Of a DNA stretch of 64,000 bases, positions 1,681 to 8,470 are shown in pieces. The DNA is from an uncultured Methylomirabilota bacterium (GTDB lineage: Bacteria; Methylomirabilota; Methylomirabilia; Methylomirabilales; 2-02-FULL-66-22), in contig OY970067.1 of the NCBI GenBank assembly GCA_963705305.1, positions 608,001 to 672,000 on the forward strand. Reading direction: 5' to 3'. The notes below the pieces were generated by a model, which was not told the origin of the DNA, ran no database searches, and saw nothing but the letters and a program-made list of their open reading frames with translations. Made by a program: the position numbers and the translations under genes. Position 1 is the first letter of the stretch; the number at the start of each line of letters is the position of its first letter.

Positions 1681-1709
1681 TTGACAGGCGGACGGAGCCC
1701 TGTTACCCT
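1681..1709 (+). promoter_or_regulatory. sigma70-type promoter for leader ORF 1 / oxlT1
   Basis: TTGACA (1681-1686), N17, TACCCT (1704-1709), with extended -10 TG at 1701-1702. Confidence 0.65.
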
Positions 1710-1763
1710 TATATTGTCTTGATGCCTCCGGAGAGTCGATGGCGGCCTGGAGGGGCATTCGAA

Positions 1764-2145
1764 ATGCGTAGAGAGCGAGCGGTCCAGGGGCTGGTGGGTT
1801 CTAGTCCTTGTAGCTCTCCTGGCATGTGGGAGTTATTTCATCTTCAATGTTCTTGACCTGAACGGAACAAGATTTGCCGCCCGCTGCGCCGACAATGGCG
1901 TCGCCGCGGTTGACACATCGGATCTTGACGCGGACCGTCTCCTCCGAACCTCCCTCGCATCGACGGATCCGCTTCACCTTGCCAGTCCCTTGCTGCTTGC
2001 TGATGCCGCTCTCGAAGCTCCCGGGCTCATGCTCTCCACGCTCCCGGGAACGCCCTCCCCTCACCAAGACCACACGATCCTCCCGCGGGGAGGTCTGATC
2101 CGAGAGAGGTCCTCGACGCGCCCTTCAACCCCCGATCCCGCTTGA
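1764..2145 (+). CDS. Membrane-anchored leader protein ending DPA-stop, copy 1; +1 frameshift near 1782 (not in the ORF track)
   Basis: RBS GGAGGGG then ATG 1764 (MRRERA); +1 frame reads SRGWWVLVLVALLACGSYFIFNVLDLNGT...ILPRGGLIRERSSTRPSTPDPA* (TGA 2143-2145); clear paralogue of 4173-4559. Confidence 0.65.
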
Positions 2146-2424
2146 CCTTCGACCATAACGAGCCGGGCGAGCCACGGCGTAGTGTTTCCCGGCGGTGGCA
2201 TGCCCTGGCCTCGTCCTTCGTCTCCAGGTGATTCTGCACCCTGTCTGCTGCTCGACCGGCATTCCCCCGGGGGGGAGGCGGGGCGCTGGCCTCCCGGGAG
2301 CAGATTCGCGGCCAATTCACCTGTGGACGAGAGAGCGTAAGCCCTCGGTGCCTGTCAACCGTCGATGTCCGATAGGATTTCGAGACCCCGCCGGATCGCT
2401 CCGGTGGGGAGGAGGATTCGAGCC

Positions 2425-3762
2425 ATGGCCACCCCAAACAAGGCCGTATCGTTGAGTCAAAGCTCCGAACCTCTCGTCAACCGCTGGTGGCAGCTCGTGG
2501 CGACCATCATCGCCATGATGGCCATCGCAAACCTCCAGTACGCGTGGACCCTGTTCACCACCCCCCTCACCCACACTCTCGGCGCCTCCCTGGCGGCCGT
2601 CCAGGTGGCCTTCGCGGCCTTCATCCTGACGGAGACCTGGCTGGTGCCCTTCGAGGGGGTCCTGGTGGACCGCTTCGGGCCCAAGCTGGTCATCATGGCG
2701 GGTGGTGTGCTGGTCGGCCTGAGCTGGATCGGCTCCGGCCTGGCCCACTCTCTGACGACCCTGTACATCTCCTACGCCTTAGGCGGCATCGGGGCGGGGG
2801 CCGTGTACGGCGCCTCCATCGGCCACTCCCTGAAGTGGTTTCCGGACCACCGGGGCCTGTGCGCCGGGCTGGTCGCTGGGGCGTACGGCATCGGGACGGC
2901 GGTCACGGTGGCGCCGATTGCACACATGATCAAAGTCTCGGGGTATGCGCATACTTTCGTGGTCTGGGGCTTCATTCAGGGGGCCATCGTGCTGGTGGCG
3001 GGCTACTTCGTCCTAGCCCCGCCCCGGGGCTGGAAGCCCGAGGGCTGGGACGAGAAGGCGGAGGCCACCAGCAAGCGTGTGAACCGCTCGGCGGTTGACC
3101 TGAACCCCGGGCAGATGCTCAAGCAGCCCTCCTTCTGGGCACTGTACGTCATGATGACCCTCATGGCCTTCACCGGCCTGGTCATCACCGCCCAGCTCAA
3201 GCCCATCGCCGTGTTCTACCACGTGGACAAGGTGGTCGTGGCATTCGGCCTGACCGCCCTGGTCCTGGCCATCCAGATCGACCGGATCCTCAACGGGGTG
3301 ACCCGGCCCTTCTGGGGGTGGGTGTCCGACCACCTCGGGCGCGAGAACACCATGTGCATCGCCTTCGCGCTGCAGTCCGTGACCATCCTGGCGCTGATGC
3401 AGTGGATCCACCACCCGATCCTGTTCATCCTCCTGTCCGGGTTCGCCTTCTTCTCGTGGGGGGAGATCTTCTCCCTGTTCCCCGCCGCGACGGGCGATCT
3501 CTTCGGCCGGAAGCATGCCGCCACGAACTACGGGATCGTCTACACCGCGAAGGGCCTGGCCTCCATCTTCGCCGCGCCGGTGGCCGCCCTCGTTTCTGTC
3601 GCCGAGGGCTCCTGGCTGCCCATCTTCTGGGCCATGGTGTTCTGCAGCGCCCTGGATGCGGTCCTGGCCCTGGTCTGGCTGAAGCCCCTAGCGAAACGGC
3701 ACGCGCAGAGGAGCCTCGCCATGGCCGGTGCCACCAGCCCCGCCCCCCACGCGGCGGACTGA
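2425..3762 (+). CDS. oxlT: Oxalate/formate antiporter family MFS transporter, copy 1
   Basis: RBS GGAGGAGG; OFA-family motifs NRWWQL, LQYAWTLF, KWFPDHRG, NGVTRPFWGWVSD, YTAKGLASIF; about 12 TM segments. Confidence 0.88.
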   Translation: MATPNKAVSLSQSSEPLVNRWWQLVATIIAMMAIANLQYAWTLFTTPLTHTLGASLAAVQVAFAAFILTETWLVPFEGVLVDRFGPKLVIMAGGVLVGLSWIGSGLAHSLTTLYISYALGGIGAGAVYGASIGHSLKWFPDHRGLCAGLVAGAYGIGTAVTVAPIAHMIKVSGYAHTFVVWGFIQGAIVLVAGYFVLAPPRGWKPEGWDEKAEATSKRVNRSAVDLNPGQMLKQPSFWALYVMMTLMAFTGLVITAQLKPIAVFYHVDKVVVAFGLTALVLAIQIDRILNGVTRPFWGWVSDHLGRENTMCIAFALQSVTILALMQWIHHPILFILLSGFAFFSWGEIFSLFPAATGDLFGRKHAATNYGIVYTAKGLASIFAAPVAALVSVAEGSWLPIFWAMVFCSALDAVLALVWLKPLAKRHAQRSLAMAGATSPAPHAAD

Positions 3763-3770
3763 GTTGGCAA

Positions 3771-3800
3771 CAGGGAAGGGGGGTCGTCCCCCCTTCCCTG
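3771..3800 (+). terminator. 13-bp hairpin after oxlT1
   Basis: CAGGGAAGGGGGG-tcgt-CCCCCCTTCCCTG, 8 nt after the stop. Confidence 0.6.
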
Positions 3801-4109
3801 CGCCTCATGCGGGATACAGGCGTGTGAAATGATCACGCCCTGTCCGGGACGGCCCAGGCAAGACTCATAGGGCAAGACAGCTCGAGCGGCAATGCGAGCC
3901 TGCCTTTTCAGCCATGGCGGAGCTGCCCTCCTTGTGGCAGCCCTGACGTTCATGCTGATCGCGTTGCCGGGCGCGGCAGGGGCGGCGCCCGGCCCGATCT
4001 CCTCCCTCCACGGCTACCATCCGATCGCAACCGTTCCCTTTTCTTTCGGGCATATTGAAGGGCGATTGTCCACGTGCTGAGCCCTGCCGATTAGTGGTGC
4101 GAATTCTCT

Positions 4110-4138
4110 TTGACGAAATTTTCATTTCTTTGTAGGAT
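4110..4138 (+). promoter_or_regulatory. sigma70-type promoter for leader ORF 2 / oxlT2
   Basis: TTGACG (4110-4115), N17 AT-rich, TAGGAT (4133-4138). Confidence 0.65.
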
Positions 4139-4172
4139 GCCGGCGTCGTCGTCCTTGAATGGGGGACGCCGC

Positions 4173-4559
4173 ATGCGGTTGTTCAGGCGACAAAAGCAGC
4201 AGTCATGGAAATGGTGGTACGTGGTACTGTTTGGACTCCTGGCAATCGGGACATACGTGGTCTTTGATGTTTTGGACATTGACGGTTCGGAGCTAGCTTC
4301 GTGGGACTTGGCGAATAATCTGACCGCGCTCGAGTCGGCCGAACCATCGAGTTGTCGTCCACCACAGATCGTCCCACCAGAGCGATCACTTCCTTCCGCC
4401 GACGACCACCTCTCTCAGTGGCTCAATGCGCAGAGTCAGCAGGGCGCCTCATCCATAAGCACCGGCTTGACGCGTGCTCGCCACGCCCCGACTCTCGCCC
4501 GAATACGTTTGGCCTCCGAATTGACAGCCTCAAATTCCCTCTCCGCTGATCCTGCCTGA
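4173..4559 (+). CDS. Membrane-anchored leader protein ending DPA-stop, copy 2 (128 aa, intact)
   Basis: RBS GGGGGA; basic N-terminus, TM segment WWYVVLFGLLAIGTYVVF, then DVLDIDGS, a low-complexity spacer, and TLARIRLASELTASNSLSADPA*. Confidence 0.75.
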   Translation: MRLFRRQKQQSWKWWYVVLFGLLAIGTYVVFDVLDIDGSELASWDLANNLTALESAEPSSCRPPQIVPPERSLPSADDHLSQWLNAQSQQGASSISTGLTRARHAPTLARIRLASELTASNSLSADPA

Positions 4560-4744
4560 CCCCCCTTGCCAGACGAGACGGACGGATTCATGTGGTCCGT
4601 CTCTCGACGGCACACCGCTGAAAGACCCTCGCTCGCATCCGGTACTCATGAGCGGATCCTAGTGTGCGATCGGTCGAGCGCCGTCGATTGACGAAATAGG
4701 TTGTATGCCCCGCTGGTTCCTCAACGGGAAGGAGAATTCGAGTC

Positions 4745-6076
4745 ATGTCCACCCCAAGCGCATCTTCTGACCGCAGCGTGGCCGCCCCGGTCAACCGATG
4801 GTGGCAGATGGTGGCCGCGATCATCGCCATGATGGCCATTGCCAACTTGCAGTATGCCTGGACCCTGTTCACCACACCCCTCACCCAAAGCCTGAATGCG
4901 AGCCTCGCGGCCGTCCAGGTGGCCTTCGCCGCCTTCGTGCTGGCGGAGACGTGGCTGGTGCCCTTCGAGGGCGCTCTGGTCGATTATTTCGGCCCGCGAG
5001 TGATCATCATGGTGGGAGGCGTCCTGGTCGGGCTCGGCTGGATCGGGTCGGGATTGACCAGCTCTCTGGGAGGGCTGTACTTCTGGTACATCCTGGGCGG
5101 TGTCGGAGCGGGCGCCGTCTATGGCGCCTGCATCGGTCACGCCCTGAAGTGGTTCCCGGATCACCGCGGCATGTGCGCCGGCTTCGTCGCCGGGGCATAT
5201 GGGATCGGCACCGCGGTCACGGTGGCCCCCATTGCAGCCATGATGAAGTCCTCGGGCTACGCCCACACCTTCGTGGTATGGGGGTTCATCCAGGGGATCA
5301 TCGTGCTGGTGATGGGCCTCTTCATCATCCGGCCCCCGGCTGGCTGGGCGCCAGCGGGCTGGGCGGAAAAGGAGGCGACCATCCGGGCGCACATCAACAC
5401 TTCGACAGTCGATTTGCACCCGGGGCAGATGGTCAAGCATGGCTCTTTCTGGGTCATTTACTTCATGATGACCCTGATGGCTTTCACCGGTCTGGTGATC
5501 ACGGCCCAGGTGAACCCCATTGCCGTGTTCTACCACGTGGACAAGGTCGTGATCGCCTTTGGGATGACCGCCCTGGTCCTCGCCATCCAGATCGAGCGCA
5601 TCCTGAACGGCATCACCCGTCCCTTCTGGGGATGGGTCTCCGACCATATCGGCCGTGAGAACACGATGTTCATCGCCTTCGGGCTGCAGTCCCTGACGAT
5701 CGTCGCCCTGCTGCAGCTCATTCACCGGCCGGTGTGGTTCGTGGTCCTGTCCGGTCTGGCGTTCTTCTCGTGGGGGGAGATCTTCTCCCTGTTCCCCTCG
5801 GTGACCGCCGACTTGTTCGGGAAGAAGTACGCCACGACGAATTACGGGATCGTCTACACCGCCAAGGGGCTGGCCTCGATCTTTGCCGGGCCCGTGGCGG
5901 CCCTGGCCAAGTCGGCAACCGGGTCCTGGGTCCCTGTCTTCTGGGCCATGGTGATTTGCAGCGGGGTGGATGCAGTGCTGGCCTTGGTCCTGCTCAAGCC
6001 CCTTGCCCGGCGGACCGTCCAAGAGACGATGAAATTGGCCGGGGGCACCCGTCCCGCTCCCCACGCGGCGGACTGA
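4745..6076 (+). CDS. oxlT: Oxalate/formate antiporter family MFS transporter, copy 2
   Basis: RBS GGAAGGAG; close paralogue of 2425-3762 with the same motifs and the same C-terminal PAPHAAD. Confidence 0.88.
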   Translation: MSTPSASSDRSVAAPVNRWWQMVAAIIAMMAIANLQYAWTLFTTPLTQSLNASLAAVQVAFAAFVLAETWLVPFEGALVDYFGPRVIIMVGGVLVGLGWIGSGLTSSLGGLYFWYILGGVGAGAVYGACIGHALKWFPDHRGMCAGFVAGAYGIGTAVTVAPIAAMMKSSGYAHTFVVWGFIQGIIVLVMGLFIIRPPAGWAPAGWAEKEATIRAHINTSTVDLHPGQMVKHGSFWVIYFMMTLMAFTGLVITAQVNPIAVFYHVDKVVIAFGMTALVLAIQIERILNGITRPFWGWVSDHIGRENTMFIAFGLQSLTIVALLQLIHRPVWFVVLSGLAFFSWGEIFSLFPSVTADLFGKKYATTNYGIVYTAKGLASIFAGPVAALAKSATGSWVPVFWAMVICSGVDAVLALVLLKPLARRTVQETMKLAGGTRPAPHAAD

Positions 6077-6120
6077 GGCCAAGGCGAAGCTCTCCTGTTC
6101 CTGTCTGGGATCACAGACCG

Positions 6121-6160
6121 AATGGGCCGCACCCGATCTCCGGGTGCGGCCCATTTCTTT
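6121..6160 (+). terminator. Rho-independent terminator after oxlT2
   Basis: AATGGGCCGCACCCG-atctc-CGGGTGCGGCCCATT then TCTTT; between convergent genes. Confidence 0.75.
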
Positions 6161-6181
6161 CGGAGCCGGATGGACAAAAGC

Positions 6182-6878
6182 CTAGCGCGCGTCCGGCCCC
6201 TCGATCGGTTTCACGGGGGGAACGGGCCGTTGCGCCTCTCCGCGCGTCCGTCGGACGGCGTCCAAGAACTCCCGCGCCCGGCCCGCAATTTCATGCCACC
6301 GACCATTACGCACGAGATCGCCCTCCGTCAGGGCGCCGCCCACCCCGACCGCCAGCGCCCCGGCGCGAACGAACGCTCCGACATCCGCCAGCGTGATGCC
6401 CCCGGCAGCGACCAGAGGAATCTGCGGCGCGGCGGACGGCCTGGAAGTACCGAGGGCCGACGGCGCCCGCCGGACACATCTCTACAAGGGCGGCCCCATG
6501 CTCCCAGGCCATGGCGATCTCCCCGAGAGTGAACGCGCCGGAGATGACCGCCACGTCCGTCTCGCGGCCCAACCGGATGAGGTCGGCGATGATGTAGGGC
6601 GTCACCAAGAACTGCGCCCCCGCCCCGATGGCCTCGCGTCCGGCCTCGGCCGTGGGGATGGCTCCGACGCCGATCAACAGATCGTTTCCCATGGCGGCGC
6701 GAATCCGCCCGACCCCCCGGAGAATTTCCGGATGGGTCGCCACGATCTCCACCACCGGGCGGCCCGCCTCCCGGAGGGATTTCGCCGCCGGCAGCAGATC
6801 CTCCGACCGCTCGGGCCGCAGGATGACGATCAAGCCTTCTGCCCGAATCCGCTCGATCGCATTTGGCTGCACGCTCAA
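6182..6878 (-). pseudogene. eda: KDPG/KHG aldolase homologue, frameshifted near 6432 and lacking the catalytic Lys
   Basis: GAGAQFLVTP, SGAFTLGEI; the shifted frame continues APQIPLVAAGGIT...GALAVGVGGAL to TAG at 6182; the Schiff-base motif xKxFPA reads VEMCPA. Confidence 0.75.
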
Positions 6879-8434
6879 TCTCCTGCGCGTAACCCCATCA
6901 GGCCGGCTCGGAAGATGCGGGCGTCCATGGGTCTCAGGTCGGGGGCGATCCTCGGGCGGAACGCCATCTGTCCCAGGACCTCGCGCTCCAGGTCCACGCC
7001 TGGGGCGATCTCCGTGAGCATCACCCCCTCACCGGTGACGACCAGGACCGCCCGTTCGGTGATGAACTGCACACGCTGGCCCCGCGCCGCGGCATACTCG
7101 CCGCTAAAGGTGACTTGGGCGACATGCGGCACGAATTTCTTGAACCGGCCCTCCTTCACGATACGCAGCCGGCCATCGCCGATCTCGACCTCCAGGCCGC
7201 CGGCGGTGAACGTGCCGCAGAAGGCCACTGCCTTGGCGCCCTGGGAGATATTGATGAACCCGCCCACGCCAGGCATGCGCCCCTGAAACTTGCTGACGTT
7301 CACATTTCCTTGCGCGTCCGCCTCCGCCATGCCTAGGAATGCCAGATCCAGGCCCCCACCGTCGTAGAAGTCGAACTGATATCCCTGGTCGAGGACGGCT
7401 TCGGGATTCGAGGACATGCCGAAGATGACCCCCGGCGCCGGGATTCCGCCCGTGATCCCCTGCTCGATGGTGGGGGTCATCCGATCGCTGATCCCCTCTT
7501 CCGCCGCCACCAAGGCCACGCCATCGGGCATTCCCACGCCCATGTTGAGGACGGCCCGGGGCAGCTTCACGATCTCCAGGGCGGCCCGCCGAGCGATCAT
7601 CTTCCGCTCGTCGAGCGGCATGGGGGTCAGGCTGGAGATCGGCACCTTGACCTCGCCGCTGTACGCCGGATTGTACTCGCTCTCCACGCTCTGCCACTGC
7701 TCTGGATGCACCACCACGTGGTCCACCATGGTGTGCGGCACCTTGACCATCTTGGGCGGAAGCGTCCCCGCTTGGGCCAGACGCTTCACCTGGGCAATCA
7801 CGATCCCCCCCGAGTTCCGGGTGGCCATCGCCATCGGCAGCACTTCCAGGAACGCCGGCTCCTGCTCCAGGGTAAGGTTTCCCTTCTCGTCCGCCGTGGT
7901 CCCCCGGATGAAACAAACATTCAGCGGAAAGGCACGATAGAACAGCCATTCGCGACCGGCCAGGCTGACGACCTCGATGAGGTCCTCTGTGGTCCGGCCG
8001 TTCAGCCGGCCGCCTTCGAGCCGCGGATCGATGAAGGTCTTTAGCCCGATATGGGTGACGAGGCCCGGCCGACCGGCCGCCACCTCGCGCAGCCACTGGG
8101 ACATCACCCCTTGCGGCCAGTTGTAGGCATCGATCTTGTTGTCGAGGATGAGCTGCGCATATTTGGGGGACATGCCGTAGTGGCCGCCGATGTTCCGGCG
8201 GACCAGCCCCTCGCCGGTGAGCTGGTTCAGGCCGGTAGTTTTCCAGTCCCCCAGCCCGGACACATGGAAGATGGTCAAATCCCGCGGGCGTCCCGTTTCC
8301 GCGAACTTCTCCGCCAGAGCGCGGATGAGCAGATCCGGCTCCACGTTTCCGCCGCCGGCTCCGTGGATGGCCAGCGTGTCGCCCGACTTGACGAGGTCGA
8401 TCGCCGCTCGTGCGCTGGTGACTTTTCCGCTCAC
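6875..8434 (-). CDS. Acyl-CoA:acetate/propionate CoA-transferase (YdiF/Pct-like, family I, fused)
   Basis: GLKTFIDPRLEGG, RGTTADEKGN, TIEQG (catalytic Glu), FDFYDGGGLD, GNVNVSKF, GGFINISQ, TERAV; GTG start with RBS. Confidence 0.9.
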   Translation of the reverse strand: MSGKVTSARAAIDLVKSGDTLAIHGAGGGNVEPDLLIRALAEKFAETGRPRDLTIFHVSGLGDWKTTGLNQLTGEGLVRRNIGGHYGMSPKYAQLILDNKIDAYNWPQGVMSQWLREVAAGRPGLVTHIGLKTFIDPRLEGGRLNGRTTEDLIEVVSLAGREWLFYRAFPLNVCFIRGTTADEKGNLTLEQEPAFLEVLPMAMATRNSGGIVIAQVKRLAQAGTLPPKMVKVPHTMVDHVVVHPEQWQSVESEYNPAYSGEVKVPISSLTPMPLDERKMIARRAALEIVKLPRAVLNMGVGMPDGVALVAAEEGISDRMTPTIEQGITGGIPAPGVIFGMSSNPEAVLDQGYQFDFYDGGGLDLAFLGMAEADAQGNVNVSKFQGRMPGVGGFINISQGAKAVAFCGTFTAGGLEVEIGDGRLRIVKEGRFKKFVPHVAQVTFSGEYAAARGQRVQFITERAVLVVTGEGVMLTEIAPGVDLEREVLGQMAFRPRIAPDLRPMDARIFRAGLMGLRAGD

Positions 8435-8470
8435 ACGCTCACCCCATTTCAACTGCCAAGACGGTCAAGT

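Follow-up and report, generated by a model that had tools for sequence, protein, structure and literature searches.

In Rhodobacter capsulatus, the small exported protein CutF carries Cu-binding and C-terminal Pro-rich motifs through which its export is coupled to stalling of the ribosome; this opens a stem-loop that covers the ribosome-binding site (RBS) of cutO, and CutF acts solely in cis (PMC9973294; bioRxiv 10.1101/2025.02.05.636593). The commonest genes downstream of CutF-like proteins are described as OEP, ACR_tran, HlyD_D23 and TonB-like genes (PMC9973294). This paper deals with a family of small open reading frames (ORFs), here called leaders, two of which precede oxalate/formate antiporter genes in the window, a stretch of 64,000 nucleotides (nt) from an uncultured Methylomirabilota bacterium (assembly GCA_963705305.1, contig OY970067.1, positions 608,001 to 672,000 of the forward strand). 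Positions without a further label refer to this window.

Several other described systems are close enough to be compared. To find monitoring substrates of the Sec and YidC machinery, Sakiyama et al. (PMC7897499) looked for an ORF of 80-200 residues (aa) of no assigned function, placed directly 5' of a sec or yidC gene, with an N-terminal signal or transmembrane (TM) segment and a conserved C-terminus. Small upstream ORF (uORF) proteins with RAPP or RGPP motifs combine localisation signals with a motif near the C-terminus, and are described before TonB-dependent receptors, YcnI and Cu-related genes in diverse phyla (PMC12992588). CzcI of Cupriavidus metallidurans is presented as a CutF-like protein that lacks the C-terminal Pro motif, and it was suggested to be a metal-sensing regulator (PMC9973294).

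The reading that we favour, with a probability of about 0.42, is that the leaders act mainly in cis during their own synthesis, as co-translationally exported peptides of the CutF/SecM/VemP type with a new C-terminal motif. A preliminary description, made from the sequence of the window, had proposed the two ORFs as candidate arrest peptides; its observation was right and understated, and its leader-peptide interpretation is plausible, backed by synteny, by the fixed C-terminal spacing and by the CutF precedent.

The leader-antiporter units and the leader family

The unit of leader ORF, spacer, oxalate/formate antiporter gene and terminator hairpin is present twice on the forward strand of the window, as had been reported. 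Leader copy 2 (4173..4559) is intact, runs from ATG to TGA over 128 aa and consists of a basic N-terminus, a predicted TM helix (residues 8-33), the motif F-D-V-L-D-I-D-G-S, a low-confidence tail and the end L-A-R-I-R-L ... D-P-A-stop. It is followed by a spacer of 185 nt (4560..4744), with a 9-bp hairpin beginning about 8-15 nt past the stop (z = -2.0), and by antiporter copy 2 (4745..6076, 443 aa; TIGR04259, 458.9 bits). In the first unit, the frame-broken leader copy 1 (1764..2145), which matches the family profile with E = 4.8e-43, is separated by a spacer of 279 nt (2146..2424; hairpin beginning 13 nt past the leader stop, z = -2.8) from antiporter copy 1 (2425..3762, 445 aa; TIGR04259, 467.7 bits; MFS_1). 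Both antiporters exceed the curated cut-off of 335 bits of TIGR04259, the NCBIfam equivalog for oxalate/formate antiporters of the major facilitator superfamily (MFS), and at 74% identity (331/445) the two copies are as similar as first thought. Hairpins stand behind both genes: a terminator-like one at 3766..3804 (-34.3 kcal/mol, z = -4.0, without a U tract), and one resembling an intrinsic terminator at 6118..6163 (-38 kcal/mol, z = -6.5, then UUUCUUUC). Sigma-70 promoters had been proposed for both units. For copy 2 this was borne out by a promoter scan, which found TTGACG-17-TAGGAT (4110..4138) 35 nt 5' of the leader start; for copy 1 the proposed hexamers (TTGACA at 1682 and TATATT at 1711; 1682..1716) lie a non-canonical 23 nt apart, and neither the scan nor a simple regular expression yielded a promoter for this copy.

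The frame of copy 1 that belongs to the family is open from 1723 to 2145, with the conserved part extending from the WW at 1792 to the TGA at 2143-2145, and it ends in D-P-A. It contains no ATG, GTG or TTG before 1990, and a family-typical start, ATG-CGT at 1764, is found in another frame that reaches a stop after 30 codons. Together this implies that the frame shifts by one base somewhere from 1764 to 1792, possibly at the GGGG run of 1787-1790, in agreement with the +1 frameshift placed earlier near 1782. The break is present in the assembly, and may be either a real mutation or a sequencing error.

At the N-terminus the two leaders are identical in 17 of 44 residues (E = 7e-12), and they share the basic N-terminus, one TM helix and the sequence F-[DN]-V-L-D-[LI]-[DN]-G-[ST]. 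Both end with L-x-R-x2-L-x2-E-x9-D-P-A-stop, so that L, R, L, E and D-P-A are equally spaced in the last 22 residues; the reported likeness of the ends is thereby confirmed. By sequence comparison this likeness is far beyond chance, and a profile built from paralogs retrieves hundreds of relatives with the same ends. Both ORFs are members of a real, conserved and unannotated family of about 125-residue proteins, predicted to be membrane-anchored. In the window's genome, searches with copy 2 and next with profiles of its paralogs identified 11 loci, of which 8 are intact; the three disrupted ones are copy 1, a copy with internal stop codons and a copy that matches in two frames. Beyond this genome, a 24-member profile run against 1.84 billion cluster representatives had 382 matches (E up to 1e-3), 155 of them at 1e-10 or better. 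The statistics on representatives given below refer to the 149 best of these 382 metagenome cluster representatives, which have a median length of 126 aa (interquartile range 120-130).

Within the phylum, 41 of 251 genomes carry the family. It is found in 8/20 genomes of the window's own taxonomic family, in 9/20 of a second and in 23/159 of a third, and in none of those of two others (0/15 and 0/21). No Pfam family was matched by the leader members; DUF2946 (PF11162), the family of the CutF-like proteins, was hit by 0/132 at E up to 1, and the commonest sub-threshold family, DUF3649, by 3/132 (best E = 0.0065). The best PF11162 matches in the window's genome, which do not reach the cut-off (E = 0.04 and 0.36), are at places other than the leaders. 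None of the NCBIfam models matches the 24 leader members at E below 0.037, a word-based homologue search with copy 2 returned copy 2 itself and nothing else, and the ESM Atlas contained no usable match for this copy. For a member from the third family, in which the leaders are linked to resistance-nodulation-division (RND) genes, no Pfam family is assigned to the nearest ESM Atlas clusters, and the first of these occurs most often in Candidatus Methylomirabilota; clusters of LpqS and DUF6153 score 0.85, which can serve as a lead only.

All 11 loci of the genome encode the basic N-terminus, one hydrophobic helix, the sequence F-[DE]-x-L-D-[LIV]-D-G-S immediately after the helix, and an Arg block, [LI]-P-R-x2-L-x-R, about 21 residues before the end. 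In the window's genus the last 22 residues have the consensus [LI]-P-R-x2-L-x-R-x10-D-P-A-stop; the terminal Pro is present in 24/24 aligned members and the stop directly follows the motif in 17/24. Across 132 sequences, F31, L34, D35, D37, G38, S39 and P127 are at least 90% conserved. Among the representatives, L-D-[LIV]-D-G-[ST] occurs in 113/149, and 99/149 end with [DE]-P-[AVLI] (70 DPA, 13 DPV, 10 DPL and 6 EPA), while a [hydrophobic]-[PA]-R motif, which could be placed in 85, starts precisely 21 residues from the end in 49 of them. Two or more Pro residues in the last 15 are found in 112/149. Conservation of the ends alone, as described for the window pair, is correct for these two leaders and does not extend to the family, which also has a middle motif, of the form E-x-D-R-[LF] in the window's genus. 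A twin-arginine signal was considered and rejected: R-R-x-W-x-W is seen by eye in several members and is missing from many, including copy 2.

Genes downstream of the leaders and comparison with described systems

Homologues of the leaders head strings of genes on the same strand, 24-350 nt 5' of the next gene, which mostly encodes a transporter or another envelope protein. In the window's own genome, 7/11 copies lie 24-347 nt 5' of organic-anion uptake transporters of six families, namely OxlT (2), a metabolite/H+ MFS protein whose gene adjoins galactarate/altronate dehydratase, L-lactate permease (LctP), TctC-TctB-TctA, DctP-DctQ-DctM and a DASS symporter. The remaining four comprise a copy with a weak response-regulator match downstream, two that flank a Crp-type regulator gene and one, copy E, without a recognisable same-strand neighbour. 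Sister genomes offered 26 usable loci, at each of which we recorded the first gene on the leader's strand to have a Pfam match: TatA/TatC (4); LctP (2), TctC (2), DASS (1), MFS (1) and DctP (1); DedA/VTT (1), TonB_C (1), an outer-membrane beta-barrel (1, 747 nt away) and gamma-glutamyltranspeptidase (1); GT2 glycosyltransferases (3); response regulators (2), HD (1), an aminotransferase (1) and GYD (1); and none (3).

In the third family, 6 of 8 Pfam-tested copies are situated directly 5' of OEP-HlyD_D23-ACR_tran operons and the other 2 of 8 5' of an ACR_tran gene. The spacers between leader and operon, which is of the type outer-membrane OEP, membrane fusion protein (MFP) and RND pump, are about 44-82 nt long, and many genomes retain this position. 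As for the second family, an OEP gene follows one copy and a HAD hydrolase gene another, and five more are followed at 64-74 nt by an ORF of 412-419 aa. When leader kinship was compared with neighbour class by all-against-all BLASTP, the nearest leader preceded the same gene class in 8/22 cases against 1.3 with shuffled labels, a value of 8 being reached in 0.2% of the shuffles; leaders of 46-79% identity also stand before different genes.

The CutF-like proteins (DUF2946; CopL, CruR, SilD, CusD) resemble the leaders in their size of less than 150 aa, in a signal for export or anchoring at the N-terminus, in a short motif outside the cytoplasm and a conserved C-terminal motif near the stop, and in being encoded first on the strand, ahead of envelope genes; the leaders of the sister families also share the neighbours OEP, ACR_tran, HlyD_D23 and TonB-like. 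Leaders would pass the filters used for CutF-like proteins in PMC9973294, which are a length below 150 aa, an N-terminal signal and a same-strand gene within 1000 nt. They differ, apart from the missing PF11162 match, in a TM anchor that looks uncleaved, in an acidic D/G/S motif where CutF-like proteins have CxxxC or His, in the end P-R-x2-L ... D-P-A-stop instead of a PP or PPP run, and in their spread, within the window's genus, to organic-anion uptake transporters and Tat. Moreover, cis action, stalling and an RBS-masking stem-loop have been demonstrated for CutF; for the leaders they are proposed.

With the Sec and YidC monitoring substrates (SecM, MifM, VemP, ApcA, ApdA, ApdP) the leaders have three of the four sequence features of PMC7897499 in common; they lack the fourth because the gene downstream is not sec or yidC. 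The nearest case is that of tatA/tatC at 4 sister loci, and no sec or yidC gene lies downstream of any leader locus examined. In the window's genome itself, no family member precedes tatC at E up to 1. Monitoring of membrane insertion in the sense of SecM or MifM, which had been part of the original proposal, therefore does not fit. The leaders also differ from these substrates in the absence of RAPP, RAGP or another known arrest motif and in the many paralogs per genome, and from the RAPP/RGPP uORF proteins in a distinct motif, with neither RAPP nor RGPP in the family. TnaC also has a residue pattern at a fixed distance from its stop codon, and a spacer of about 200 nt before the regulated genes; it differs in being a cytoplasmic peptide of 24 residues with no membrane anchor and a cytoplasmic ligand, and its last residue is a Pro, compared with a leader Pro at -2. 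CzcI, compared by description only, is a small protein encoded directly 5' of an OEP-MFP-RND (czcCBA) operon, whereas the window leaders precede antiporters and not RND pumps.

As to novelty, the preliminary description can be followed for the motif family, which is without a Pfam or NCBIfam model, and has to be narrowed for the principle, exported stalling leaders before non-Sec genes being already described (PMC9973294, PMC12992588). The main text of PMC10987492 makes no mention of tatA, tatC, Methylomirabil, NC10 or Rokubacteria, and candidate lists in the supplements of the cited arrest-peptide papers could bear on this point.

Three observations concern genes that accompany leaders in other genomes. 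TatA genes behind leaders in three sister genomes (L015:1993-2310, L016:1059-1334 and L028:926-1201) encode a C-terminal zinc-ribbon, with matches to TatA_B_E and to Zn_ribbon/DZR/DUF7575, which is an unusual TatA fusion. One genome of the RND-linked family has an additional leader copy that is flanked by two ACR_tran genes, the second of which starts 53 nt downstream of it (L073:12104-12634, + strand). A DDE transposase gene (L081:6156-7604, - strand) is located directly upstream of the leader copy that precedes a DASS symporter gene.

Proposed action in cis during synthesis and its alternatives

If the leaders act in cis, the basic N-terminus and the TM helix would bring the translating ribosome to the membrane, and the acidic F-[DE]-x-L-D-[LIV]-D-G-S segment and the tail would be threaded outside. 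The last 22 residues would then be in the ribosomal tunnel when the stop codon is reached, and could slow termination or the last elongation steps. The dwell time of the ribosome would be governed by export of the tail, or by the binding of something on the outer side, and would in turn determine how strongly the next gene of that mRNA is expressed, which in the window is the oxalate/formate antiporter gene. The occurrence of eleven paralogs before non-homologous transporters, and of leaders of 46-79% identity before different genes, fits better with a portable regulatory module than with a dedicated partner. Of the leader-peptide reading as originally put forward, the N-terminal anchor, the poorly structured middle and the C-terminal motif at a fixed distance from the stop are supported. 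AlphaFold2, run with 132 relatives, predicts a single confident helix (residues 8-33, pLDDT 92-94), the rest having a pLDDT of 56-67 and no folded domain.

Several observations, which are best discussed with the alternatives that they support, weigh against such a mechanism. The ratio of nonsynonymous to synonymous substitution rates (dN/dS) is below 1 in every region in six ortholog sets (N-terminal 0.06-0.31, middle 0.18-0.64, last 24 codons 0.17-0.59). Both the ends and the middle are thus under purifying selection; the non-neutrality of the middle, as well as an invariant acidic motif that exceeds the needs of a targeting signal, fits a functional mature protein. Judged from their sequences, the leader ORFs are translated proteins. 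They start with ATG or GTG, the second codon being one for Arg, and a purine-rich stretch lies 5' of the start. A close strain (public contig over 3903-4349) differs in leader copy 2 by I36V and one synonymous Leu change.

These data can also be read in terms of a small envelope protein acting in trans, with a single TM pass and a disordered periplasmic tail carrying linear motifs, which would be a regulator or assembly factor of the CzcI kind; the free C-terminal D-P-A might be recognised, as a ligand or degron, by a periplasmic protease or a PDZ-type domain. We regard this as a serious competitor of the cis reading, though on balance less likely than not. Besides the selection over the full length, it would explain why the membrane-proximal acidic motif hardly varies over three families of the phylum, and why the last residue varies between A, V, L and F, like C-terminal recognition motifs. 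Second motifs with possible ligand residues are clade-specific: by eye, one sister family has C-x8-C and a different one a conserved His. The exported part of the window leaders is without a Cys/His metal-binding motif. The RNA tests described below gave no sign of a cis mechanism, and CzcI, as noted above, is a CutF-like protein that does without the C-terminal Pro motif (PMC9973294). Against a protein acting in trans, paralogs precede transporters of unrelated folds, solute-binding proteins, TatA, OEP and glycosyltransferases, which makes specific protein partners unlikely, and close homologues are found before different genes. The absence of a folded domain points in the same direction, as does a weak codon bias: the G+C content at third codon positions is 0.61-0.81 in the leaders and 0.84 (standard deviation 0.065) in 2491 long ORFs. 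Furthermore, 3/11 copies in the window's genome are disrupted, yet the antiporter behind the frame-broken copy is intact.

The C-terminal end itself raises difficulties for stalling. Entire clades end otherwise, one family with [DE]-P-A plus 4 residues, a different family with P-S-A and a sub-family with about 8 additional residues, so that a free D-P-A-stop is not universal. The expectation that homologues would be first in their operons and would not extend past the motif thus holds for the heads of gene strings and for the 99/149 representatives that end there, and fails for these clades. A PP sequence in the last 15 residues is found in just 26/149 representatives and in neither of the window leaders. 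To our knowledge, the C-terminal motif is unlike any characterised arrest motif.

Cis control could in principle also proceed at the RNA level. The last codons would then be an anti-Shine-Dalgarno run that masks the next RBS and is opened by plain translational coupling, with no peptide stall. This we consider very improbable for the family as a whole. Individual folds do show pairing of the last leader codons, or of bases just past the stop, with the Shine-Dalgarno (SD) sequence of the next gene, and a consensus fold of six second-family orthologs pairs a CCUCC-like run past the stop with the next SD sequence, including one compensatory pair. In the third, RND-linked family there is hardly any variation in the last codons, CCC-UCC-GCC, and nearly all members use UCC for the Ser; in individual folds this run is complementary to a GGAGGG-type SD sequence 44-52 nt downstream; an RNA constraint could be operating there. 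In the window's genus, among 23 members, CCU (CCT) is enriched at the terminal Pro (7/16 versus 17.5% elsewhere in the leaders, p = 0.013), GAU (GAT) is enriched at the terminal Asp (10/15 versus 40%, p = 0.03) and CCG is depleted (1/16), with the limitation that these counts include orthologs and are not independent. The same genus, however, uses all four Pro, both Asp and three Ala codons at D-P-A, a variety which indicates that the constraint acts on the peptide. The conserved block also spans 22 residues, with Pro invariant at the protein level. Stop codons vary as well, with 13 TAG, 9 TGA and 2 TAA in 24 genus members compared with 31%, 57% and 12% in long ORFs; in other clades TGA or TAG predominates.

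The predicted pairing, whether read as RNA masking or as a CutF-like stem-loop over the RBS, does not stand out from background. Complementarity between the leader stop zone and the RBS is not above that at 447 co-directional junctions in the window's own genome (Mann-Whitney p = 0.38), the 60 nt past the leader stop fold no better than those at 426 junctions (p = 0.48), and RNAalifold returned no consensus structure for 11 third-family spacers. In this respect, the leader-peptide proposal gains no support from the RNA predictions.

The neighbourhood of some copies is a further difficulty, since they precede aminotransferase, GYD, HD or response regulator genes, or, like copy E, have no same-strand neighbour with a Pfam match, the next large gene being convergent; another, copy F, is directly followed by a terminator-like hairpin. 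Such cases would be expected of a small gene that is independent of its neighbours, driven by a promoter of its own and often closed by its own terminator, such as one for a membrane stress protein, or an envelope protein of unknown role, that tends to be inserted at operon boundaries; the proximity of transporters would then have no mechanistic meaning. Promoter-like hexamers 45-132 nt upstream of 4/11 copies (simple regular expression), hairpins after several stops and the different neighbours of close homologues agree with this possibility. It is nevertheless improbable, as a same-strand gene is present within 24-350 nt at nearly every locus and 7/11 own-genome copies precede organic-anion transporters, the place before OEP-MFP-RND operons is kept across many genomes of the third family, and the nearest homologue heads the same gene class far more often than shuffling predicts (8/22 versus 1.3).

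An extended form of the cis reading, which is tentative and in our opinion unlikely to hold in full, is that the leaders are a new class of export-coupled arrest peptides with a new tunnel motif acting at or before termination. The acidic segment would read flux, membrane potential or a cation, and the module would have been copied before at least six uptake systems, Tat and envelope genes, where it would gate transport operons. A bolder reading still is that the anchored, paused ribosome would hold the polycistronic mRNA at the membrane. If the family does stall ribosomes, a new arrest motif would be added to those known, and the CutF/SecM principle would be extended to carbon uptake in an uncultured phylum of biogeochemical importance. 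It would also be, as far as we know, the first exported leader module with nutrient-uptake transporters from many families as its targets, instead of the protein-export machinery or metal-homeostasis genes. Even if the proteins act in trans, they constitute a phylum-specific, multi-copy envelope family without annotation that marks transporter and RND efflux operons. For annotation, the family accounts for ORFs that may be missed in gene calling, among them the frame-broken copy 1.

Neighbouring genes and further observations

Two of the damaged leader copies in the window's genome, the one with in-frame stops and the one that matches in two frames, flank the gene of the Crp-type regulator mentioned above (cNMP_binding and HTH_Crp_2; genome positions 3355561-3357227, locus L012 about 6560-8230). 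Between the divergent copies F and G lies an ORF of 138 aa (L009:7131-7544, + strand) that matches the C-terminal third of the Bmp/PnrA family and is probably a gene remnant. In one sister draft genome (L020, L027), the DASS and lactate-permease genes downstream of leaders are split over two frames and one leader is frame-broken; the split genes may be due to assembly errors or decay.

Inside the window, a 62-aa ORF (3892-4080, + strand) with a hydrophobic, signal-like N-terminus and no Pfam match is located between the terminator of unit 1 and the promoter of unit 2. The first unit is preceded by a 2-oxoacid:ferredoxin oxidoreductase (1-1419, + strand), the beta subunit of which is closest to the oxalate oxidoreductase beta subunit, at 342.7 bits and below the cut-off of 590. 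Beyond the second unit, on the opposite strand (6306-8452, -), a KDPG/KHG-aldolase-like gene and a family I coenzyme A (CoA)-transferase gene are found. Taken together, the oxidoreductase, the two leader-antiporter units and the aldolase-like and CoA-transferase genes look like an oxalate utilisation locus.

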